A model generated the notes under the pieces. It was given only the letters and a program-made list of their open reading frames with translations. It ran no database searches and was not told where the DNA came from. From positions 67,704,001 through 67,768,000 of the forward strand of contig OX597831.1 of NCBI GenBank assembly GCA_951406725.2: a stretch of 64,000 bases of DNA, read 5' to 3'. Shown here in pieces: positions 10,616-64,000 of the stretch; position 1 is the stretch's first letter; each line of letters begins with the position of its first letter. The DNA is from Octopus vulgaris (taxonomy: Eukaryota). Both the position numbers and the translations under genes were made by a program.

Positions 10616-11350
10616 CATCTGAATGTGGCTAGGGACAGGGCAGGGCGGTGGGGGTGTTACTGATGCATTTAGCCCCAGGCGATCATCAACGTCACCAGGA
10701 GGGCTGACACCATCACGGCGTCCTCTAGCCTGCAAAGGGAGATCATTCCCCGAAGAAGCGGATGCCACATACGGACCTAGGTTTCAAGGTGTTTGCCTAT
10801 TATCAACGTATGGCAGGCACCGCTCCCTCGACGAACGACTCTCTGTGCAGGCTATATATAAAGATTTTCACAGTAAATACATTTACTGATGTAGAAAATC
10901 TGTTCGACAGCCATAATAATTCTCTAAACGAGATATAGACAGTAACTGCTCCATAGCATAAGGGACGTTGGCCATCTGAATGTGGCTTATTGCTGTCGAA
11001 CAGATTTTCTACATCAGTAAATGTATTTACTGTGAAAATCTTTATATATAGCCTGCACAGAGAGTCGTTCGTCGAGGAGCGGTGCCTGCCATACGTTGAT
11101 AATAGGCAAACACCTTGAAACCTAGGTCCGTATGTGGCATCCGCTTCTTCGGGGAATGATCTCCCTTTGCAGGCTAGAGGACGCCGTGATGGCGTCAGCC
11201 CTCCTGGTGACGTTGATGATCGCCTGGGGCTAAATGCATCAGTAACACCCCCACCGCCCTGCCCTGTCCCTAGCCACATTCAGATGGTCAACGTCCCTTA
11301 TGTTATGGAGCAGTTACTGTCTATATCTCGTTTAGAGAATTATTATTGCT
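10616..11350. mobile_element. Fold-back element built from two circularly permuted copies of a ~357-bp unit, in (TA)n
   Basis: catctgaatgtggct occurs at 10616 and 10973. 10989-11350 is an inverted full unit starting at a different register. Confidence 0.88.
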
Positions 11351-11371
11351 ATATATATATATATATATATA

Positions 11372-12049
11372 TCCCTCTCTCGCTCATTCTTCTTTCTGGT
11401 TTTCTCTACCATTCTCTCCCTTTCACGTTCCCTTTCTCTTACTCCTCCTCCTCCTCCTCCTCCCTCTCATCACTGACATGTGACCAGAGGCCATCTGTCT
11501 TTCTGACCACAGCCTTCAACAAGTGTAGACAGCTTCCTATCCCTTTCTTAAGCCGTTGTTCTCACGCGTTGAAAATAATTTTTCCTTCGTTCGGCTTAAC
11601 AATCCTTACTGTTCGTATTACTGTTATTCTACTTGTCCTGTCGTTTACTGTTTTTATTTGTATTTTTACTGCCTTGTATTGTTTTTACTGTCCTGTTTTT
11701 GTTACCACTTTTACCCCTCCACAAAAAAATCTCAAATTTTATTTAATTTGCTTTGCGGGAAGGACCGTTTCACAGAAGTCGTGTCTCGCCTTTACCTTCG
11801 AAACACGGACTAGACGAAACGGAGACGGCTGAAGAAGGGGAATGTTCCTTGTGTTGTATGTCTTGTACCAAGTTTTTTCGTTGTTTAAAAATAATGTCCG
11901 TTTCCATGGTTCCGCTTTTATGTTTTCATTTCTCATTGTGTTCGACGTTCTTTTGGTGTCCTGTACCCATATATGCATGTATATATACATATTGATGTAG
12001 GTACGTACATATATGTATGTATATATGCATGTTTTATTTATTATTTTGT

Positions 12050-12052
<3 letters not shown>
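11372..12052 (+). mobile_element. TA-flanked non-coding element (family P1) with permuted hammerhead at 11765-11850
   Basis: Homologous to 49780-50450: shared ccttcgaaacacg, ctgaWgaagggg, ggtgtcctgtac and gatgtaggtacgtacatatatgtatg. (TA)n on both sides. Confidence 0.75.
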
Positions 12053-12104
<52 letters not shown>

Positions 12105-12120
12105 TAGATGTATGTATACG

Positions 12121-12220
12121 CAGAGGTGGGCACTGTTAATGGAAAAGTTAACATCGTTAATCGTTAATTCTTCAAAAACGTAAAGGAAGTTAACGTTAAT
12201 CCGTTAACGTTAACTTTTAT
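12121..12220 (+). mobile_element. hAT-like terminus with subterminal GTTAAC repeats
   Basis: cagaggtgggca followed by multiple (c)gttaa(c) motifs. I did not find the other end. Confidence 0.45.
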
Positions 12221-15175: not shown

Positions 15176-15327
15176 ATATATATATATAGATCAATAAATG
15201 GTGGGGTTGTGTTGACCGCACGTGGAGAAATGATAAGTAAGGAAAAATTTTTTTAAAAATGCAGAATGGTCAAATGAAAGAAAATTTTAATAAAATGAGA
15301 AATTGATAAAATATATAAATATATATT

Positions 15328-15368
15328 TATTCAACCGGTTTTCGTCATTGTATGACTTGTCAAGAATA
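15328..15368 (-). ncRNA. Mirror copy of the U3-A8 hammerhead
   Basis: Exact reverse complement of 21699-21739. Confidence 0.75.
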
Positions 15369-15996
15369 TTTATGTTTTAAAAAGTTTTTTTAAAAATTAG
15401 AAAGGGGAAAAAAAGAAAATTGCATTGTTTTTTGTAAAAGAATAATGATAAAAATGTACAAAAATTAAAAAATAAGTTCTCCGATACATTGTGAGTTCGT
15501 TGTGTATCTTGAGTTTTATGGTTGTTTACGAAAAAATTACCTTGAGGTGTTAAGATCCAAAGGGATTAAGAGCATGTGTTGTGTTGTTAAATTCAGCATG
15601 TTTGCAGGACAGGAAGTAGTAGTAATTGTGGTCCTGGTTCTTCAGTTCCTGTGTTGTGAGTAAGGGGAGACAACTCTTTTGAGTTCTTCAATAAAACCCA
15701 AATTATAAAATTATCATTTTAGCTTCATTTGCGTTATCTTTTTTATATAATTGCTTGTTAACTTAACTTTCAGATTTTAACACTTTATTTATATTATTTT
15801 CTAATTATATAAATCTGCATAGACAATTGCATTTCAAATTGTCATATCATTTATAATAAAAATGATAGTAATAACAACAATAGTAAAAATGATATTTAAA
15901 GAATATAAGTTTTAGCTTGAAGTGATGAATGCATGGTATCTTTATATATTTGTGTTAGTCCATCCATGAAGAGTGAGGTAGAGAAAGGAAGTTTGA

Positions 15997-18900
15997 TCAA
16001 CGAGGAGTTTGCATATTAAGTTATGTTTGGAATTTTTCAATAAAGCGATTCTCCTTGTTAATTCTCTCCTGTGTGGTGATCCCGTCTTTACATTGGTAGA
16101 AGGGGAATATATAGAATTTTGGGTTTAAGTCTTTAGCACATGAGTCTAAGTGGTCACTCAGTGGAATTAGTCGGTATTCCGGGAGATTTATTTGTTCTTT
16201 ATGCACCGTTACTCGTTTACGTAACGGGAGACTCGTTTGTCCAACATAATTATGTTGGCAACCAGCGCATGTGAGAACGTAGATAAGGTTCTCGGAGGAA
16301 CAGGAGAAGTTAGTCTTGATTTTAAACTTCGTACCTTGTTTGAAGGTAAATTCAGAGCCTTCAAGTAGAAAGGGGCAGGTACCACAGTTTGAGCGTGCAC
16401 ATTTTTTTACTGTTGGGGGTGGATGTGGTGTGTGAAGTTTGGCATTTGTCAAGAGTTTTTTTTAAGATTTGTGTTGCCTTTTGCATTTGAGGATTTTGTG
16501 TGTATTTATAATGTTTTTCATTTTTGGGTCTGTTGACAGTAGACTGAGGTTTTGTATGATTGTGGTGTATGCTTCGATATTTTTGGGGTTGTGGGTGGAA
16601 ATGTATGGAAGTATTTTGAGGTTGTGTGTGGTGTTAGGTTGGGTGGTTTTCAGTGTAGTGTTGTCTAGTTCTTTGGCGCGTTTTATTCCATACTCTATAA
16701 GGGTGGAGGGATATTGACGTTGTAATAGTGTTTTTTTGAGGTCTTGAAGGCGTATTTCTCGTGTTTTTGGATCCGAGACAATGGTGCATACCCTTTTAGC
16801 TAAATTGAAAGGGATATTTGTCTAGGTGTGTTTTGGGTGGCATGAACTAAAGAGGAGGTATTGTTGTGAGTCTGTAGGTTTGTGGTAGATGTCTGTTATG
16901 ATTTCGTTCTTAGGTGTTTTTATAATTAGGAGATCAAGGAATGGGAGATGATGTTTGCTTAATTCCATAGTGAATTGGATGTTGGGATGTATGTTGTTTA
17001 GTATGGTTTTGAATTCCAGGAGTTTTTCATAAGGTTCTTTCCATATGATGAAACAATCATCTAAATACCTTTTCCAGTTTTCCATTAGGTAGGTGTGGAA
17101 AACATGTCCAAATTTCTGGCTTGATATTTCATAGAGTGACAGTTCGAAGTAACCCATTATGAGGTTCGCAAGGACTGGTGCAGCCTTGGTACCCATCGCA
17201 ATGCCACATTTTTGACGGTAGTGTGTGTCGTCGAAGAGAAAAAGATTGTTTGTCAGAATGAACTTGAGAGATTCTGTAATAAAAGACTTGTTAATGCGGT
17301 CAGGGAATGTCTCTGGGTGTTTTTCTAGCCAGAAGTCAATTGCCTCTATACCATACTCATGTGGAATGTTGGTGTAGAGGTTGATGACATCAAAGGATAC
17401 CAGGAGTGCCTCCTCGTTAACTGTTTTCGGGAGGTGTTTGAGCATGTCCAGATCATCCCTAATGAAACTTTTGATGTGGGTAAGGAAAGGTTTCAAAAGG
17501 ATGTCTAGGAAGTTACTCAGGCGGTGTGTTTCACAGGAGGTACCAGCCACGATGGGCCTTAGTTTTAGGTCCTCCGGTGCTTTGATGTTGATGTGGATGT
17601 CAGTGGAGAGTTTGCAGGCTTCGGTGATGTATTTGTTTTTATGGATTTTAGGAAGGCCATAAAAAAGGCTGGGCTTGCATTTGAAAATGGTGATATAATC
17701 CCTTTCTTTTTCTGTGAGTCCCTGGCCGTGTTGGCGTATGAGTGTGGTGAGGTTTCTGATTGTTTTTTGCTGTTTGTAGTTGTTAATAACCTCATAGAAA
17801 ATGTTATTGTTAAGCATGGAAAACACTAGGTGTTTATAAAATTCCGTGTCCATAAGGACCACAGCACTCCCTTTGTCCGCTTCTTTGATGGTGAGGTTTT
17901 TATCCAGTTGTATGTCACGTAGGTTTTCCCATTCTTCCTTACTGAAATTGGATTTTACCTTGGTTTTGCTTGGGGTAAAGGGGAGACTCTGGATGTGTTT
18001 GCAGAAATCGTCCAGTGTTTTATTTCTCCCTTGTGGTGGTAGGAAGTTGCTTTTATTTCTGATCAATGAATCGTCCCCATTGTTGATATCTGTCAAAGCT
18101 TCTGTTAGGCGAAGTTTTCTGCAGAATTCAGAAACGTCATCCTTGACCTCCGGGGGTTGGGTGTTCTTGGGGTGGGTGTGAATTTCAAACCTCTTGCTAG
18201 GATGTTGATTTGGGTTGGTGTCAGTGTTTTGCTGGAGAGGTTTATAATTTTTGTTTTCTTATTTTGGGTCTGTGTTAGCGGTGGTGTTTGTATTTCCCCC
18301 TCTGTCTAAAATATGGTTGTTGAGGTAAGGAGTGTATTCTTTGTTAAAGTTCTGGTTGTATGTGTAGGAGTGTTTTTGGGTGGGGAGGTTGGAGGGGGGT
18401 AGGTAGTTGTCGTATTTGTGTTGGTATGAGATGCGATGGTGTAAGGATTTGTGAGAAATGCGATGGGTTTGTGGGTGTGTGTCTGGTAGATTGTATGGGG
18501 GGATGTAGGGGGGATGTAGTTGTGGTGATTGGGTTCGTGTGGGATGTGAGGGTTTGGAGATCTGTAGGATATGTGGTAGGAATGTGGTTGTTGGATGGGT
18601 GGACTATAGGGGGTTCGTTGGGTGGGTATTATATGTATCGGTGTGGGTAGGATGCCTTGTTTGTTATTGGTGTGAGGGAGGGGAGCCTTGAGGGGAGGAT
18701 AATTTCTAGTGTATGGGAGGTTCTTGAAGGTTCTAATCGGTGGGGGAGGGGTGTTAGAGTGATTGGAAAACCAGGTTTTGTGGTGGGTCTTGTTTGAGAT
18801 GTTTCGGGGGGAAAAGGTTTTTTATATGGTTGGGGGAGGTTGTGTCCTGTTAGGAGGGGGTTTGGAGAGTATGTGTATTTGAGGTGCGGTTTGGAATGGT

Positions 18901-19758
18901 GTTTATGGGGTACAGTGGAAGTCTGTGTTGTGGGTACTTTTATGAATGGGTTTTGGGATTTATGGTTTAATATGAATTGTGTTTCATAGTTGAGGAAGAA
19001 ATCTTTGTTGTTTTCCCAGCGTTTAAGGGAGGTTCGTTCTTCCTTTTCACATTCATCTTTCCATAGTTTAATAACAAGTTCGAGGGGCTGTTCGTTGGTG
19101 TGTGAGGTTAGTTCTAGAAGTATCTCATCGTCTATTTTTGTGTATTTTTGTTCGTGGTTTTGTGCTCTGAGTTTTAGAAGTTCTACTTCGGTTTTCATTT
19201 TTTCCAATGTTAGTTTTTCTCTTAGGGAGCGTTGTTTTTCAGGTTCGTCTGGGATGTGTTTGATTTGGAATTTTCGGGGTAGTATGATAGGGGAGGAGTT
19301 TAACCATTTGTCGTAAATTTCAGCTTTGTTTTGGTTTTTGAGCATGTTCCAGAAGAGAAGTTTTCTGTTGTGTAGTTTCTTAGTCTAAGTAGTGATGATC
19401 TGGTTTTTTGTGCTGGGGTTGAAGTGTGTTCCTTCTGTGTGTTGAGTGGTGTCTGAGGTCTCTTTGGCGTTGAATTGGTAAGTAGAGTTTTCAGTGTAGT
19501 GTTGATTTCATTTAGGTTTACATCTATCTTATCCGAAAGTAGAGTTTTCAGTGTAGTGTTGATTTCGTTTAGGTTTACATCAATTTTATCCGAAAGTTGT
19601 TGATGATGGTTGTTTTCTGAGTTGTCCCGGGATTGATGGAGAAGTTCGTCAATTTTTTTGGAGAATGTAAGTAGATGTGTATTGAGTACTTTGAGTTCTT
19701 TTAGAATGGTCTTATTGGTGACTGTCTCTGTAAGAGTGCTCTTGTTTTTCGGAGGCAT
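15997..19758 (-). pseudogene. PLE polyprotein (N-terminal extension, RT, thumb, Cys motif, GIY-YIG endonuclease), disrupted by stops and frameshifts
   Basis: ORF pieces 19300-19758, 18629-19345, 16822-18096 and 16021-16452. Motifs: KEADKG, YGLPKIHK, RPIVAG, SFDVINLYTNIP, GIAMGTKAAP, WKRYLDDCF, YHKPTDSQQYL..SSCHP, CARSNCGTC, LIYVLTCAGCQHNYVGQT. Confidence 0.93.
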
Positions 19759-20274
19759 TCTGAATCACACGTGTGGTAGAGGGTACAGTTCAATAAATGG
19801 TGGGGTTGTGTTGACCGCACGTGGAGAAATGATAAGTAAGGAAAAATTTTTTTTAAAATGCAGAATGCTCAAATGAAAGAGAAGTTTGGCATTTGTCAAG
19901 AGTTTTTTTTAAAGATTTGTGTTGCCTTTTGCATTTGAGGATTTTGTGTGTATTTATAATGTTTTTCATTTTTGGGTCTGTTGACAGTAGACTGAGGTTT
20001 TGTATGATTGTGGTGTATGCTTCATATTTTTGGGGTTGTGGGTGGAAATGTATGGAAGTATTTTGAGGTTTGTGTGTGGTGTTAGGTTGGGTGGTTTTCA
20101 GTGTAGTGTTGTCTAGTTCTTTGGCGCGTTTTATTCCATACTCTATAAGGGTGGAGGGATATTGACGTTGTAATAGTGTTTTTTTGAGGTCTTGAAGGCG
20201 TATTTCTCGTGTTTTTGGATCCGAGACAATGGTGCATACCCTTTTAGCTAAATTGAAAGGGTATTCAGCTAAAA

Positions 20275-21070
20275 GGGTATGCACCATTGTCTCGGATCCA
20301 AAAACACGAGAAATACGCCTTCAAGACCTCAAAAAAACACTATTACAACGTCAATATCCCTCCACCCTTATAGAGTATGGAATAAAACGCGCCAAAGAAC
20401 TAGACAACACTACACTGAAAACCACCCAACCTAACACCACACACAACCTCAAAATACTTCCATACATTTCCACCCACAACCCCAAAAATATCGAAGCATA
20501 CACCACAATCATACAAAACCTCAGTCTACTGTCAACAGACCCAAAAATGAAAAACATTATAAATACACACAAAATCCTCAAATGCAAAAGGCAACACAAA
20601 TCTTTAAAAAACTCTTGACAAATGCCAAACTTCACATACCACATCCACCCCCAACAGTAAAAAAATGTGCACGCTCAAACTGTGGTACCTGCCCCTTTCT
20701 ACTTGAAGGCTCTGAATTTACCTTCAAACAAGGTACGAAGTTTAAAATCAAGACTAACTTCTCCTGTTCCTCCGAGAACCTTATCTACGTTCTCACATGC
20801 GCTGGTTGCCAACATAATTATGTTGGACAAACGAGTCTCCCGTTACGTAAACGAGTAACGGTGCATAAAGAACAAATAAATCTCCCGGAATACCGACAAA
20901 TTCCACTGAGTGACCACTTAGACTCATATGCTAAAGACTTAAACCCAAAATTCTATATATTCCCCTTCTACCAATGTAAATACGGGATCACCACACAGGA
21001 GAGAATTAACAAGGAGAATCTCTTTATTGAAAAATTCCAAACACAACTTAATATGCAAACTCCTCGTTGA
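20275..21070 (+). pseudogene. Inverted second copy of the PLE thumb and GIY-YIG coding region (frameshift near 20605)
   Basis: ORFs 20229-20618 and 20582-21070 are nearly identical in translation to the minus-strand region 15997-16800. Confidence 0.92.
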
Positions 21071-21698
21071 TCAAACTTCCTTTCTCTACCTCACTCTTCA
21101 TGGATGGACTAACACAAATATATAAAGATACCATGCATTCATCACTTCAAGCTAAAACTTATATTCTTTAAATATCATTTTTACTATTGTTGTTATTACT
21201 ATCATTTTTATTATAAATGATATGACAATTTGAAATGCAATTGTCTATGCAGATTTATATAATTAGAAAATAATATAAATAAAGTGTTAAAATCTGAAAG
21301 TTAAGTTAACAAGCAATTATATAAAAAAGATAACGCAAATGAAGCTAAAATGATAATTTTATAATTTGGGTTTTATTGAAGAACTCAAAAGAGTTGTCTC
21401 CCCTTACTCACAACACAGGAACTGAAGAACCAGGACCACAATTACTACTACTTCCTGTCCTGCAAACATGCTGAATTTAACAACACAACACATGCTCTTA
21501 ATCCCTTTGGATCTTAACACCTCAAGGTAATTTTTTCGTAAACAACCATAAAACTCAAGATACACAACGAACTCACAATGTATCGGAGAACTTATTTTTT
21601 AATTTTTGTACATTTTTATCATTATTCTTTTACAAAAAACAATGCAATTTTCTTTTTTTCCCCTTTCTAATTTTTAAAAAAACTTTTTAAAACATAAA

Positions 21699-21739
21699 TA
21701 TTCTTGACAAGTCATACAATGACGAAAACCGGTTGAATA
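21699..21739 (+). ncRNA. Minimal type I hammerhead ribozyme, U3-A8 core variant, at the PLE 3' end
   Basis: TATTC-TTGACAA-GTCA(TACAA)TGAC-GAAA-ACCGGT-T-GAATA. Stem I is TATTC/GAATA, stem II is GTCA/TGAC, stem III is palindromic. Confidence 0.75.
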
Positions 21740-22050
21740 AATATATATTTATATATTTTATCAATTTCTCATTTTATTAAAATTTTCTTTCATTTGACCA
21801 TTCTGCATTTTTAAAAAAATTTTTCCTTACTTACTATATATATATATATATATATATATATTCCTTATGAGTAGCTGAAGCCGTATTCGTTCGTAATAGC
21901 ACTCTGTATTTCATACTTAATTTATATATATCGTCGAAAGCGCGATAAGCTGTGATATTCGTCTATAAATAGCATCTGTTATAAGTGTACAATGTTAAAA
22001 ACTGAAATATATCAGTAGCGGATGAGAGGTGTCCACAGCGGTGATGTATT

Positions 22051-39575: not shown

Positions 39576-40013
39576 AGATCTTTTCGGTTTGAACGGCAGT
39601 TTTTAACATAATTTCTAGGTACCTAAAAAATTTTAAACTTCGTATACTGGTAGAATGTGTTTATAAAACATCTTTTTCTCTTGGCTTTATTGAGAAAATT
39701 CTATAGTTTGTAAGATATTTGTTGTTTTTTTCATTCAATTTCTGCAATTTCAACCAATCAGTGACGTCTGTTGAGTTAAAAAGCATTCTGTGCCGTATGA
39801 ATATGTCCCTCGTTTAAGAAACAGATTGAGTTTATTTACATTTGTGAAGAAAAAAAGATACCCTTCCCCCACCCCTAACCCTAACCCTAACCCTAACTAA
39901 CCCTAACCCTAAAATAGATTGAAATGCAATAGATCGATTCTAGGGTCATAATTATGAGTGGCAATTTCATATGACACTGCTAGAAAAAACTGCCGGTCAA
40001 ACCGAAAAGATCC
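39576..40013 (+). mobile_element. Telomere-repeat MITE copy
   Basis: Same TIRs and body, TSD ttcatagc/ctcatagc. Confidence 0.92.
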
Positions 40014-40574
40014 CTCATAGCAGACGATTCCTGATTCTCATCTGCTAATAATATGTATCTGCATGAGAGGAACTCTCAAGACAAATACCGCAGTATTCGG
40101 TGTTGTAACAAAACATTCCAGTTAAATTGGATATAATGTTAACTATTTACGATTTGTGCGACTATGGAAATCGATTTACCATGTTCATTTGTACGTATTA
40201 CACACGGTGTTAAACTTATATAAGTTTTCAACGATTTTCATCATTAGAAAATGCTTTTATTATGCAGAAATCAAACACTTAATTCATGAAGATGTGACTG
40301 AATTTAGTCATTTTCCTTGGAGAATATACGTATAAGTTTTCGAAAAGGAAATAAAAAAAAAAGATTCACTAAAAAGTTGCACCTATCGATCTATTCGTGC
40401 AGAAGGTCGTCATAGATGTTTATATATCAATTTTTTTTTCATATTGAAGATCAGCCATCAAAGGTTCATATGTAGACAACCTCTTCATTTGTGACGAAAC
40501 TGAGTAATGTCTTACTTAGTGTTATCGATCTATTCAAGCGAGTGCTGGAATGGTTATGCGATTAAGAATTTCAT

Positions 40575-40988
40575 GGATCTTTTCGGTTTGAACGGCAGTT
40601 TTTTCTAGCGGTGTCATATGAAATTGTCACCCATAATTATGACCCTAGTATCGATCTATTGCATTTCAATCTGTTTTAGGGTTAGGGGTGGGGGAAGGGT
40701 ATCTTTTTTTCTTCACAAATGTAAATAAACCCAATCTGTTTCTTAAACGAGGGACATATTCATACGGCACAGAATGTTTTTTTTTACCTCAATAGACGAC
40801 ATTGATTGGTTGAAATTGCAGAAAATGAAGAAAAAACAACAACAAATATCTTACAGACTATAGAATTTTCTCAATAAAGCCAAGAGAAAAAGATGTTTTA
40901 TAAACACATTCTACCAGTATACGAAGTTTAACATTTTTTAGTTACCTAGAAATTATGTTAAAAACTGCCGTTCAAACCGAAAAGATCC
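40575..40988 (-). mobile_element. Telomere-repeat MITE copy
   Basis: Same TIRs, perfect 8-bp TSD aatttcat. Confidence 0.92.
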
Positions 40989-48624: not shown

Positions 48625-49180
48625 TGTGTGTGTGTGGGGGGGGTGTATACGTGTAAACAGAAAGAAGAGAAACGCTGAAGATTTTCAGGTGATGAATACT
48701 TAAGTATAAATGTATAGATATTTATATATTAATTGATCAAACTTACACAGTGTACAAATGACAGTGAAAATTAAAGGGGAGGATGTAGGTCCAACAATTG
48801 CTTCTGGGAGCTTGGAGATCCGTCATAATGTTGATAGATGTAGTTCACCCAAATATGCAGCCAATATTGGAAGCAAATAAACATTGGAGGAATTTGAGCC
48901 TCTGTCATTTCAGATCATGATGCAGAGAAGTTTATGTAAAATATGTAATATTTCAAGGAGACAGAGTTGGCAATTCCAAGTTCTAGTTGAGTAAGGTGTA
49001 ACCTTGTCAATGATACTCCATTTGATGTTGGAAGAATCGTGATATATAAATACACATGCACATACACATATACGACCGGACATAAACTTAACTGCATATA
49101 AATATATTACTGATTTATGCTTTACAGAGCATTTCTTTTTTTGATATATGAAACTTTGACGATATACATATATATATATA

Positions 49181-49667
49181 TATTAGAGGGAAACCACTAT
49201 GTGGACACCCTTATGCTAGAAATAGATCCGCTATGGTCTTACCACTAAGAAATGTTCTCAAGAAAAATTTAGTAAAACAACCAAAACGTAATCGAGCAAG
49301 ACAAAAGAAAAAGCAATAAAAATATGGATTCTTCGCATACATGTTTCACTATTACCATATTACGTAAGTTTACTGACATAAATGTCCGTAGATCATCGGT
49401 GCGACCGAGTATGCAGTCCTGCAAATTATATTCATCTGGACGGTCGCACCGATGATCTACGGACATTTATGTCAGTAAACTTACGTAATATGGTAATAGT
49501 GAAACATGTATGCGAAGAATCCATATTTTTATTGCTTTTTCTTTTGTCTTGCTCGATTACGTTTTGGTTGTTTTACTAAATTTTTCTTGAGAACATTTCT
49601 TAGTGGTAAGACCATAGTGGATCTATTTCTAGCATAAGGGTGTCCACATAGTGGTTTCCCTCTAATA
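49181..49667. repeat. Fold-back element: two ~227-bp inverted arms, 33-bp spacer, one hammerhead per arm
   Basis: 49181-49407 is the reverse complement of 49441-49667 with about 1 mismatch. Flanked by TA. Confidence 0.92.
49444..49515 (+). ncRNA. Type I hammerhead (CCGAUGA core, long stem II); mirror copy at 49333-49404 on the minus strand
   Basis: TCGCA-CCGATGA-...-GAAA-CATG-TA-TGCGA. Perfect 5-bp stem I, palindromic ACATGT stem III. Confidence 0.7.
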
Positions 49668-49779
49668 TGTATATAATACAATTTTACTGAACCTTCAGTT
49701 TTTTTTTATGCTAGACCATCGATGAAATCGATGTTAATTAAATTAATATCTAATTTTTCACCCTCATTCTAAATTTCTA

Positions 49780-50455
49780 TATAATTATGACGCGAAACTC
49801 TATAACTCTTTCTTCTCTCTTTCGTTCACCCTCTTTGGCTTCCTTCCTCTCTATCTCTCTCTCACTCCTCCTCATCTCTCTCACAGCCGGATCGACGAAC
49901 TTCCTTTTGCTGACGGCCTCCTTCAAGTAAACATGTTTCTTCTTGCGCTCTTGAATTTTTCCTCGTCTAGGCTTATAGGCCCTCATTGTTTGTTTTCCTG
50001 TCCTGTTTCTATTCCTTCTTGTACTGTATTTTTTTGTAATTGTATTTTTATTTTGTAATTGTTTTTAATTGTATTGTTTTTACGTCCTGTTTTTGTCACT
50101 ATTTTTTTCCTTGTTTTTACCCCTCTGCAAAGGAATTTTATTTAATTCTTTCGCAGGAAGGATTAGTTCGACGAGTCGTGTTCTGTCCTCACCTTCGAAA
50201 CACGCTGGAGTTGAACTAGGGACAGCTGATGAAGGGGATTTTTCCTTGTGTAATTTGTCTTGTACTCTGTTTTTTTTTCGTTGTTAAAAAAAGGTCCGTG
50301 CCATGCTTGTTTTTACGTTTTCGTTTCTCGTTAAGTTCTACGTCTATTTGTGGTGTCCTGTACTCACGTATATATATTTATATATGCATGTATATATACT
50401 TGTAGATGTAGGTACGTACATATATGTATGTATGTATATATTTTATTTATTACAC
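49780..50455 (+). mobile_element. TA-flanked non-coding element (family P1) with permuted hammerhead at 50164-50245
   Basis: Diverged homolog of 11372-12052, directly upstream of the truncated PLE. Confidence 0.75.
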
Positions 50456-50487: not shown

Positions 50488-52410
50488 ATGTCGTTACATT
50501 GACGACATTATCGGTGCCACCTCACTCTCCCGTGAACATCTAGATTCCTTCCTCTCTTTCGTCCAATCTTTCCATCCAGCCCTCCACTTCACTTCCACTA
50601 TCTAAAACACCTCTGTCTCCTTCCTCAACATTTCGGTTAGCATTCTTCACTCCACTCTTACCACCTCCATTCACTACAAACACACAGACTCACACTCATA
50701 CCTCAACTTCTCTTCCTCCCACCCAGAACACACCAAGCTTTCCATCCCCTATTCCCAATTCCTCCGTCTACGTAGGCTCTGTAGTGACGACCATGACTTT
50801 GAGACTCAGTCTCAACATATGGCTCACCACTTCACCCTACGTGGATACCCCCTCACCACTATCCACACCGCCCTTGCCAGAGCACGGTCCGTGGACCGTG
50901 TATCTGCTCTCTCTCCCCGAACCCGCCCTGTAGTCTCCCGCCTCCCTTTTCCCCTCACTTACCACCCCACGATCCTACGTCTCCAACGCACCATTCTTCG
51001 AGCTTTCCGTCATCTCCAGTCCGACCCGTCCACTTCACACCTCTTCCCTAACCGACCCCTCCCCTCTTTCAAACGAGCCCACAACCTTCGAGACCTTTTG
51101 GTCCATAGCTCCTTCCCTGACCCTACCTCCCAGCCCGGCTCGTTCCCCTGCTCCCGCCCACGTTGCCGCACTTGCCCTTACCTCTCCAACACCACCCACC
51201 TCACTAGCACCCACCATCGACCCTATCCCATCATCCACTCCTTCACCTGCACCTCCAGCAATATTATCTATTGCGTCTCTTGCTCTCTCTGCAATTCCTT
51301 GTACATCGGACAAACGGGACGCCGCTTGGCTGACCGGTTCGCGGAACACCTTCGTGACATCCACCTTGCGAACGACACACCGGTCTCACGCCATTTCCGC
51401 TCCACCAGTCACTCCTTGCAACACCTATCTGTGTTTGGTTTGTCCTTACACAGAGGCCATCCGGATTCCCGTTTGCGCCGTGAACAGGAATTAATCTTCT
51501 CTCTTCGCTCTTATACGCCATTTGGTCTCAACTCTCCCCCCTCTCTCCCCCCTCCTCACCTATCCTTCCCCCCCCCCCGACCCCTACTTCTTCAGTCCTT
51601 CATCCTTTCACCCCCTACTCCCCTTCCCTTCTTCCCTCTTTCTCCCTCCCTCCTTCCCTCTTCCCTCTGCTCCCTCACTCCCCTTCTCTCCCCCGCCCCC
51701 TCTTTCCTCCTTCCTCCTTCCTCCCCTCCCCTCCCCTCCCCTTCCTTCCCCCTCCTCTCTCCCCCTCCCCTCCTCTTCCCCCTCCTCCCCCTCTTCTTCC
51801 CCTCCCCTTCTCCCCCTCTTCTCCCCCTCTTCTCCCCTTCTCCCCCTCTTCTCCTCACTACACCACACGACTTTACACATCACACCATATATGATGTGCC
51901 ATACTAATACATACACCAACTAATACATACTAATACGTACTAATACATACTAATACATACTAATACATACACCAACCCTATACATACACACGTCCAGACC
52001 CCTCATACGCACTTATACTCTCTCATACACACACACACACACTTATACATACTAATACGTACTAATACATACACCAACCCCATACATACGCCTGTCCAGA
52101 CCTATCCTAGGGTCATTCAACCCTATTATCAACCCTATTATCTCCCCTTATTTCGCTCTCGCGTCTCATGTTTGATCTTTGACCTCTGGCCGAAATCAGA
52201 TCGCCATGTTGATTCGTTAGTTACTGCACGCATTTTTTTTCTCTCCTTCTTTCTGTGTTTTTTTTCTCTCTGTGTATCTTTCTGTTGAAGAGCGTAGGCT
52301 CGAAACGTTAAAGACTTGTTTTATTTATATTTCCTGAGCGCCATACTAATACAATTGTTTGTTTGTTTTCCACCTGCCTTCGTCTTTTGTCTATTTTCAT
52401 AAAGCTTCCC
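50488..52410 (+). mobile_element. 5'-truncated Penelope-like element (RT C-terminus, GIY-YIG, CT-rich 3' region, hammerhead pLTR)
   Basis: RYIDDII at ~50493, IHYKHTDSHSYLNFSSSHP, CSRPRCRTC, IIYCVSCSLCNSLYIGQTGRRLADRFAEH. Begins and ends at TA repeats. Confidence 0.9.
52277..52314 (+). ncRNA. Minimal type I hammerhead-like motif (CUGUUGA core)
   Basis: TCTTT-CTGTTGA-A-GAGC(GTAG)GCTC-GAAA-CG-TT-AAAGA. Confidence 0.7.
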
Positions 52411-55512: not shown

Positions 55513-55983
55513 ATCATGGGGGAGACTACCTTTGTTTCATTTATTCTCCACATTGAATAGCCTTTCATAGTAGCTTTTCCACACTTCTTTCTTTTCAGGG
55601 TCATTAAGAACAAGCATACCATTATCCATCCATACACACTTCTCTCTAACACACTCTCTGGCAATCTGGAACATCTCAAGTTTCTGATCTTTATGCTGTA
55701 AGACATAGACAAACCTCTTCCTTTTTGCATCTGCCCTAGCTAGATAAAGCTGACACATGTGTACACATAAGTGCATACATGGATAATGCATTACACATAG
55801 AAACATGCATGTGGGACCCACAGGTTACTTATATGCATTACATGTACCCATATAGCTATGCACTCATAAAACAGTTCACAGAGTGTAATATTGTCAAGTG
55901 CAGTATCTATATATATAAATACACACATACACACATCATACATAGACATGCATACATATAATTATGTGTGTAAATAAATACCC

Positions 55984-56373
55984 ATAGAGTGGTTGTATAC
56001 TGTCAACTTAACATGACAGTAGGGGATTACACCACCGCTGTTTAGCCCTAGGAAGCATTGATGCTTCCTGTCGGCTTCGACACATTTCCTGTGTCCGTAT
56101 AACTTAACATGACAGTAGGGGATTACACCACCGCTGTTTAGCCCTAGGAAGCATCGACGCTTCTTGTCGGCTTCGACACATTTCCTGTGTCCTTATATAT
56201 TTACGACACATTTCGAAGTCGACAGGAAGCGTCGATGCTTCCTAGGGCTAAACAGCGGTGGTGTAATCCCCTACTGTCACGTTAAGTTGACAGTATACAA
56301 CCACTCTATCGCCCCACCACTGTACATATCTCTATGAGATATTTAGAAATTTAATATTTCTAAATACCCATAG
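55984..56373. mobile_element. Mini-element: 96-bp direct repeat plus inverted copy, bounded by a 13-bp direct repeat
   Basis: aacttaacatgacag occurs at 56005 and 56101. 56213-56309 is the inverse of 55984-56080. taaatacccatag occurs at 55975-55987 and 56361-56373. Confidence 0.85.
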
Positions 56374-60296: not shown

Positions 60297-60848
60297 TGGT
60301 GGTGGCTGCCCCCTCGTTATCGAGTAAGGCCATTGCACAATGTTGTTATCGTGCAATGCCTGTGCAAGAAGATTCTTTTTAAAGTGAGGAAAGGCTGTGC
60401 ACTGAGTCAATCCCATTCACTAAGCAACAGCAGCCATAATCTGAAAAGAAGAACAAGTCAACATCATCAGTAACCACTGAGCAGCAGGTTTTATGTCGGA
60501 ATTATCCCAGTTACCTGAGTTACCTTCTCCTAGAAGGATGCCCTAACAAAGGCTATAGGAGTCCTTCACTCCCAATGGTTTAACCGCACGATCGGGTATT
60601 CAGTCCGATTATTTCTATGTCCCCGCGCATGATACAGCCTTAAGACATTTATTGGATGGCCGTTGACTCTCAAGAGTTCCTCCGCCTTTTGACGGGTTTT
60701 GTTTTTCATCCTGCAGGAGTGTCCTATAAACACCCTCCTCACCAAGCAAGCTTGGTAGGTATGCTGGATTAGTCGCCGACAACCCAACCATGCAACAGGT
60801 TGTACTGGGTTACATGTTGCCAGTAGCACTCGAAAGTGACCTGACATG
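60297..60848 (-). mobile_element. Non-autonomous RTE-like element inserted in (CATA)n
   Basis: Bounded by (CATA)n on both sides, with an RTE-like 3' end (ctcgataacgagggggcagcc). No ORF. Confidence 0.5.
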
Positions 60849-60895
60849 ACATACATGCATACATACATACATACATACATACATACATACATACA

Positions 60896-63702: not shown

Positions 63703-64000
63703 TCATTTCGATCATCAACTTACAGATATTACAATTTCACATTATTTATTAATTATACAAATAGGAACATGAAAATCGAACAAAACAATATACATCAATA
63801 TGCAAAATAATAATAAAAAAAAATAATACAAATAAACTGTTCCTCACAGCTGTTTCAGCCTGAGCAGTTTATTTGTATTATTTTTCTAATTATTATTTTG
63901 CATATTGATGTATATTGTTTTGTTCGATTTTCATGTTCCTATTTGTATAATTAATAAATAATGTGAAATTGTAATATCCGTAAGTTGATGATCAAAATGA
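63703..64000. repeat. Fold-back element running off the window end, with half a hammerhead in the spacer
   Basis: 63703-63840 is the inverse of 63863-64000. The spacer reads GAAACAGCTGTG on the minus strand. Confidence 0.85.

Follow-up and report, generated by a model that had tools for sequence, protein, structure and literature searches.

Two diverged fold-back elements of an octopus genome share a hairpin module that is probably the 3' recognition module of a mini-Penelope-like lineage

Two fold-back elements in the analysed stretch of Octopus vulgaris DNA (64,000 nucleotides, hereafter called the window) share a module of hairpins, H1-H2(-H3), which we consider real and moderately supported in its structure, and which is probably the 3' recognition module of a lineage of small Penelope-like elements (mini-PLEs). 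The module lies between hammerhead and tail, and its structure is kept between two families that can no longer be aligned by sequence. Both fold-backs are likely non-autonomous Penelope-like insertions belonging to two diverged families. The animal DNA of the window is rich in repeats, among them numerous microsatellites and several retroelement remnants, and its short repeats may resemble octopus SINEs.

Element 1 (55984-56345) sits in AT-rich DNA and consists of two direct units and an inverted arm, flanked by 13-nt direct repeats. An earlier note on this DNA had described a 96-nt repeating unit at this place, and the tandem is indeed real, spanning 56005-56197 with 2.0 copies at 95% matches. 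The words and hairpins that the note had pointed out were also found, at 56012-56096 and, in element 2, at ~10641-10722. The features of element 1 are as follows.

55984..56096, minus strand: copy B, with H1, H2, linker, H3 and the first part of the tail; its 5' end, probably a truncation, lies directly ahead of H1
56101..56192, minus strand: copy A, the upstream copy of the partial tandem; its 3' end is the end of the H3 loop
56213..56345, plus strand: inverted copy, head-to-head with A and B, without H1
56079..56095, minus strand: H1, 6-bp stem with 5-nt loop, pair probability 0.94-1.0
56044..56076, minus strand: H2, 4-bp base, internal loop and top stem of 7-8 bp
55999..56020, minus strand: H3, 7-bp hairpin, the loop of which marks the short 3' end
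55975..55987: left copy of the 13-nt direct repeat, possible target-site duplication
56361..56373: right copy of the 13-nt direct repeat

Both left units begin at the same G just before H1, and the inverted copy carries the full tail of ~57 nt, which closes in a small hairpin. There is a likeness, too, between the 13-nt flank repeat and the tail end read in reverse complement. In a separate observation, the tail end and the right flank together form a 42-nt imperfect palindrome at 56332-56373; the target is thus similar to the element 1 tail in reverse complement, and homology-guided priming of element 1 at its target is possible.

Element 2 (10616-11350) lies between (TA)n tracts and comprises a 357-nt unit, part of a further copy upstream of it and a complete copy in inverted orientation, with the following features.

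10616..10987, minus strand: left arm, a partial upstream copy (10909-10987) and a full copy; its short 3' end at 10616 adjoins (TA)n
10988..11348, plus strand: right arm, a full unit of ~360 nt with tail, adjoining (TA)n
11090..11134, plus strand: minimal type-I hammerhead motif with palindromic stem III, its U3-A8 core at 11096-11102 and its GAAA at 11117
11049..11176, plus strand: long, imperfect stem with the hammerhead at its tip; a portion of the 3' arm recurs in the element 1 family
11180..11196, plus strand: H1, 6-bp stem with 5-nt loop, pair probability 0.57-0.99 in the whole unit
11197..11231, plus strand: H2, predicted only without the tail
11273..11288, plus strand: H3-equivalent segment, where the left arm ends (equivalent of 11286); pairing possible, not predicted
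11287..11348, plus strand: tail of ~62 nt with weak similarity to the element 1 tail

A descriptor for minimal type-I hammerheads detected four sites in the window, two in element 2 (cores at 11096, plus strand, and 10806, minus strand) and two in a larger Penelope-like element (PLE) at 15200-21835 (cores at 21704, plus strand, and 15363, minus strand). All four motifs feature the U3-A8 core, a variant described for PLE hammerheads (PMC4209133). Five of 20 shuffled windows gave one match with this descriptor, and none of the 20 gave a match with a palindromic stem III like that of element 2. The right-arm motif has its predicted cut after 11128 and is mirrored by the copy with the core at 10806; the module starts 51 nt downstream of the predicted cut. 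The suggestion of the earlier note that the module replaces the hammerhead is thus not supported, as element 2 has a minimal U3-A8 hammerhead motif in each arm and the element 1 family runs upstream into sequence matching the hammerhead-bearing stem.

Read in the hammerhead sense, the 3' ends of either element face outward, which is the layout described for PLE insertions (bioRxiv 2021.04.23.441226). Because of this layout and the hammerhead orientation, the RNA strand is most likely the reverse complement of the strand that had been read first. Fold energies and model matches also place the functional strand most likely opposite to the one quoted in the earlier note: the predicted fold of the element 2 unit has -127.9 kcal/mol (z -5.77) in the hammerhead orientation, compared to -116.4 kcal/mol (z -3.30) for the other strand, and H1 and H2 alone fold better on the hammerhead strand in all three copies tested. 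On the non-hammerhead strand, element 2 contains a canonical G-quadruplex pattern at 10632-10654 (plus strand) that is absent from element 1.

The assignment of both elements to the PLEs is based on several of their traits. Each shows a partial tandem with a head-to-head inverted, 5'-truncated copy at the 5' side, an arrangement described for PLEs (bioRxiv 2021.04.23.441226), and each inserted into AT-rich or microsatellite DNA. A tail extension is found at one end, measuring ~57-62 nt here compared to the published 30-40 nt, and the minimal type-I hammerhead is present in element 2 and absent from the window copy of element 1. The same layout of partial tandem and inverted copy is displayed by the larger PLE of the window.

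15200-21835: PLE with remnants of reverse transcriptase (RT) and GIY-YIG domains, in head-to-head inverted copies

Its RT domain is located at 16822-18258, a weak GIY-YIG match (E 0.0008, below the Pfam cut-off) at 20435-21070, and its tail of ~35 nt at one end only. It does not carry the module; no autonomous partner carrying the module was found, and the element 1 and 2 sequences were not found in the PLEs of this window. Neither element had an Rfam match to tRNA, 5S or SRP RNA. The definition of an active non-LTR retrozyme (bioRxiv 2026.07.22.740005) asks for at least two consecutive tandem units, each with a complete hammerhead, and does not cover the present elements, because the hammerheads of element 2 are inverted and the tandem units of element 1 lack them.

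Further repeats were observed in the window. A second PLE-like, 5'-truncated element lies at 50490-52410 (plus strand); its ORF aligns to the endonuclease region of the PLE at 15200-21835 with 26% identity (E 3e-16), and a hammerhead-like stretch at ~52280-52320 was spotted by eye and not found by the hammerhead descriptors. At 63703-64000, an AT-rich fold-back, the centre of which by eye resembles the 3' half of a PLE hammerhead, looks like another 5'-truncated inverted insertion. A near-perfect 235-nt fold-back with TA-rich flanks occupies 49173-49675, where the descriptors found no hammerhead. An inverted-repeat element of ~1.4 kb at 39577-40987, with telomere-like hexamer repeats inside, is probably a non-autonomous DNA transposon.

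Turning to the likeness between the two elements, a 12-letter core occurs five times in the window at one mismatch or fewer, in all five cases inside the two elements; 0.34 occurrences were expected and none of 100 shuffles reached five, for a pattern that was picked after the fact. Sequence-only alignment is not significant, neither for the unit, where 1220 of 2000 shuffles reach the local score, nor for the arm with tail (156 of 2000); for tail against tail, 105 of 2000 shuffles reach the score. Structure models were built from each element, and their E-values are to be taken as rough. The model from element 1 listed element 2 as the best non-self match in the 64-kb window (E 0.32 and 0.88), and at E 0.0018 when element 2 was searched alone; the sequence-only model from element 1 did not list element 2 up to E 10. 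Conversely, the structure model from element 2 found element 1 at E 0.0052 and 0.025, the next unrelated match being at 0.029. As each model ranks the source of the other first, the two are reciprocal best non-self matches, on the hammerhead strand. The third-ranked match at 60771-60871 and a match at 12097-12212 were read as well and discarded, as they do not share the core.

A likeness that arose by chance or by convergence of unrelated repeats would agree with the insignificant local alignment and with window-wide E-values of 0.005-0.9; a chance locus scored 14.1 bits, compared to 13.4 bits for element 2. We nevertheless regard it as extremely improbable, given that the elements are reciprocal best matches in the hammerhead orientation, that independent contig data show a 9-letter match with the offset expected, and that the 3' ends coincide, the last two points being described below.

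At the level of single helices, with registers set by hand, 18 of 18 pairs are standard in both elements, six of them changed on both sides and one on one side; automatic model alignments put H2 in another register, and the comparison takes in two families only. In either element H1 consists of 6 bp closing a 5-nt loop, with two pairs changed on both sides. H2 combines an identical 4-bp base with a 5-bp top showing three double-sided changes, and H3, in a 3-bp register, shows one double and one single change. In full-length element 2, the pair probability of H2 is 0.0, since the tail pairs with the 5' strand of H2; for RNA ending at 11286 it amounts to 0.65-0.95, and H2 is predicted to be lost once the RNA reaches 11300. 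H3 in element 2 stays at a pair probability of 0.05 or lower in every context tried. We take H1 as the firm part of the module, H2 as probable, and H3 as a position rather than a demonstrated helix. The functional cis RNA element proposed in the earlier note receives moderate support from compensatory changes and structure-model matches.

One explanation of these data is that the hairpins were inherited from a mini-PLE ancestor and kept only for the stability of a compact RNA, or circle, without specific recognition by a protein. We consider this possible, although rather doubtful. The element 2 unit as a whole has a strong fold (z -5.77), self-pairing is general among retrozyme RNAs, and neither H2 nor H3 is predicted in full-length element 2, all of which suits mere compaction. 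H1, however, holds exactly 6 bp and a 5-nt loop despite two double changes, the hammerhead-bearing stem by contrast shares only ~11 letters, and the short 3' ends coincide.

The element 1 family was surveyed by matching assembled contigs of four public runs to 55930-56128, which yielded 766-1542 contigs per run. The family is highly repeated; its summed depth in run X1 is 675,865, a measure that differs from copy number, versus 56.3 for the contig holding the flank. A search of public runs listed no RNA run containing the sequence, a result that has no bearing on expression. In the contigs the family extends past both ends of the window copy. Contigs running on behind 56100/56101 carry TGCAAAGGG or a one-letter variant of it, 11 nt from the GTCC closing H1, in rows from runs X2, X5 and X6 (three of the four), among 24 of 287 rows listed. 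Element 2 has TGCAAAGGG at the same offset from H1, within the 3' arm of its hammerhead-bearing stem, a 9-letter match. At the other end, contigs running on before 55984 match the tail of the inverted arm (25-41 contigs in the main row in each of the four runs). With TGCAAAGGG upstream and a matching tail downstream, the two families are collinear from stem to tail. Judged from this upstream continuation, element 1 is most likely a 5'-truncated copy, which would best explain its missing hammerhead.

Variation within the element 1 family comprises 13 listed sites, two of them among 48 paired positions and 11 among 69 unpaired ones (Fisher p 0.04); p rises to 0.23 once a hairpin found in the family only is counted as paired. 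CpG decay could account for the look of several of these variants. In the hammerhead orientation, each of the two variants within stems produces a G-U pair, and a stem change of window copy A is in favour of the opposite strand. Within the TTTAG core, position 56042 is variable, at 5-48% of depth. Many family copies carry a 6-letter insertion after 56020, and in these the GGGG run has other letters ahead of it. As a side observation, many copies hold two short words 7 nt apart at 56011-56030 (plus strand), spaced as at 50221-50240 (plus strand) around the core of a type-SGC hammerhead candidate described below, with non-core letters between the words in the element 1 family; this may be chance or a distant link.

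The earlier note had found no match by eye to hammerhead, HDV-like or twister consensus. The motif itself contains no hammerhead core word in either element on either strand, and a hammerhead descriptor covering six orders of segments found no match there. A strict HDV-like descriptor, run without a positive control, gave no match in the four strand-regions; a loose version gave 1, 1, 7 and 5 matches that, among the matches listed, were not homologous between the elements, and Rfam returned no HDV-like match to E 10 at either of them. Signature words of twister, twister-sister, pistol, hatchet and hairpin ribozymes, again without positive controls, included none common to both elements, a twister-like word being present in element 1 only. 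These five classes had no Rfam match to E 10 either, a weak negative given that Rfam also missed the minimal hammerhead of element 2. In the Rfam scan that the earlier note had suggested, none of the 97 window matches reached the gathering score, and the matches at the elements were generic hairpins. Pistol-, twister- and HDV-like readings of both strands were dropped after the signature and descriptor scans. A TRGGG/CCCYA pseudoknot that looked compensatory between window copies was also dropped, on account of the six extra letters in many family copies and of the GGG already being used in H2.

The idea of an unrecognised ribozyme finds no support in the Rfam scan or the class descriptors. 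We consider it very unlikely that the module itself cleaves RNA as a ribozyme of a class not yet described, whether alongside the weak minimal hammerhead or in its place. Such an activity could account for the two left units of element 1 starting at the same G before H1, as from a fixed RNA cut, an alternative GGG/CCCC pairing exists in both elements, and minimal hammerheads are poor cleavers (PMC4209133). Many family copies, however, continue past the same G, and the two units may stem from one duplication. Moreover, we see no multi-stem junction and, with the GGG used in H2, no compatible pseudoknot; the strict HDV-like descriptor and the class signatures gave nothing in common, and a hammerhead is already present. 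A more specific version, in which H1-H2 would be a new small catalytic RNA or a switch that cuts 5' of H1 and is turned off by tail pairing, is in our view similarly improbable.

Evidence of another kind comes from the 3' ends. The short 3' ends of element 1 copy A and of the element 2 left arm fall within one alignment column, a small sample with one such end per element, and close a 10-nt segment with 7 of 10 letters in common. Longer copies extend ~57-62 nt beyond the short end; measured from the predicted cut of element 2, the short end is reached after 158 nt and the long end after 220 nt. A third end, at 55984, corresponds to neither of these two. For comparison, the protein of an anole PLE depends on RNA that follows the hammerhead and probably binds inside the initial 172 nt of the ORF. 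Its reverse transcription begins internally, in a stem-loop, the two RT start sites enclose the tail, and hammerhead cleavage is dispensable in vitro (PMC11167929). As the module sits where the RNA handle of the anole PLE would be, it is by analogy a candidate RT-recognition site. The RT-recognition signal that the earlier note had offered as its second option fits this position between hammerhead and tail, and we lean, at somewhat better than even confidence, towards the module acting as binding and initiation site for a borrowed Penelope RT, with DNA synthesis beginning immediately 3' of the module.

Following this analogy, partial-tandem copies would be transcribed by read-through, and the resulting RNA may be trimmed by the minimal hammerhead, which would probably need to dimerise or to be assisted by a protein, as its described activity would suggest. 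A PLE protein made elsewhere would then bind H1/H2, and the PLE endonuclease would nick AT-rich DNA, upon which the RT may start at one of two or more sites, the H3 loop or the tail end. Two start sites would yield the short and long 3' ends that are observed (PMC11167929, by analogy). Synthesis would often stop early, leaving 5'-truncated copies such as element 1 that keep the module and have lost the hammerhead.

The signal might instead act as DNA, either as an internal promoter of a pseudo-LTR or as a site for the GIY-YIG endonuclease near the tail. Promoters are held by the pseudo-LTRs of PLEs, the endonuclease of Drosophila Penelope needs the tail (PMC11167929), and the 13-nt flank repeat of element 1 resembles the element's own tail end. 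This option nevertheless seems distinctly unlikely, as double-sided pair changes and G-U-tolerant changes on one strand point to folding of a single strand.

Pattern scans outside the window returned three loci in viral contigs (2 loci and 1 locus), 24 in metagenome contigs and one in prokaryote genome contigs, none of them convincing. By eye, none of the 28 pairs an H1 hairpin with the core, and 26 of them, all except L027 and L028, scored at best E 0.12 and 0.41 with the two structure models, so that these loci were treated as chance matches. Eight near-identical metagenome loci (L005, L009, L017, L018, L019, L020, L022 and L024) belong to a single repeat family without relation to the module, which is probably an insertion-sequence gene; locus L016 has the same match length and a different sequence. 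In the literature we found no description of the module, although repeat libraries may hold the families as unclassified or Penelope consensus sequences. The passages of PMC13282606 covered here and its supplement mention neither hammerhead nor ribozyme.

The six-order hammerhead descriptor, applied to the whole window, gave a single match, of type SGC, at 50178-50237; one of 100 shuffled windows gave any match. The minimal type-I sites are not listed by this descriptor because it demands a stem III with an unpaired end. The match belongs to a dispersed T-rich repeat that ends at (TA)n and is a family separate from elements 1 and 2. Two copies, 71% identical, were seen.

50160-50245, plus strand: SGC candidate copy 1, in a T-rich repeat at ~50051-50420; predicted cut after 50182
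11762-11845, plus strand: SGC candidate copy 2, in a T-rich repeat from 11674 to ~12009-12050; predicted cut after 11785

In copy 2 the order of the blocks is unchanged, and stems I and II are again joined by a 3-nt linker, which has been noted for SGC ribozymes (PMC10085705). The cores of the two copies differ only at the free position 7, and the cleavage-site base of copy 2 is C, not U. Stem I shows 7 of 7 pairs in copy 1 and 6 of 7 in copy 2, with two pairs changed on both sides; stem II has four pairs, two of them G-U, and stem III five pairs plus a diverged, still paired extension. Pseudoknot-free prediction gave no better fold for this region than for shuffles (z -0.16), and a local hairpin competes for stem II. 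The SGC pattern had no loci in the viral contigs. We are fairly confident that this repeat carries a real, non-circularly permuted type-SGC hammerhead family. PMC10085705 reports no SGC ribozyme in the genomes of known organisms, and our literature search found no report of a type-SGC hammerhead in such a genome. If real, the candidate would extend these non-circular permutations, described from metatranscriptomes and metagenomes (PMC10085705), to a genomic repeat of an animal.

The interest of the module lies in the enzyme that it may serve. Penelope-type RTs are the closest relatives of telomerase. Regarding their choice of RNA, we found one in vitro study, in which the site is mapped only to a 172-nt stretch (PMC11167929). 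As non-autonomous minis must keep what the enzyme needs, the conserved module of ~110 nt is a candidate RT handle. It brings built-in compensatory mutations for testing RNA recognition by PLEs, and it is of help in annotating a family of many repeats, the truncated copies of which seem to lack a hammerhead.

Among known systems, a G-C-U-A-A word after a hairpin may resemble the catalytic joiner of HDV-like ribozymes; the candidate C, however, takes part in the pairing of H2, and family copies vary at the final A of the word. Judged with the strict descriptor, the module also lacks the nested double pseudoknot of the HDV-like ribozymes of non-LTR retrotransposons (PMC6765202). With animal non-LTR retrozymes (PMC7229834; bioRxiv 10.64898/2026.07.22.740005), the elements share a non-coding unit of ~360 nt with a type-I hammerhead motif, a compact predicted fold and insertions of more than unit length. 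Retrozymes, in contrast, are head-to-tail arrays with a hammerhead per unit, whereas partial tandems, a head-to-head inverted arm and a tail are found here, and the retrozyme descriptions, as far as these two sources extend, contain no conserved hairpin module downstream of the hammerhead. Element 2 resembles the minimal PLE hammerheads (PMC4209133) in its U3-A8 core, the extra base before stem II and the palindromic stem III; the module is distinct from this hammerhead and begins 51 nt past its predicted cut. The anole Poseidon PLE PAc (PMC11167929) is similar in layout, with its region likewise following the hammerhead, a tail that separates two 3' ends, and AT-rich targets. The PAc region is the start of the ORF, while the module region here is non-coding; PAc starts 111-118 nt into the ORF, in an AC-rich stem-loop, compared to ends 158 and 220 nt after the cut in element 2, and its tail measures 30-40 nt, compared to ~60 nt in the octopus elements (PMC11167929).
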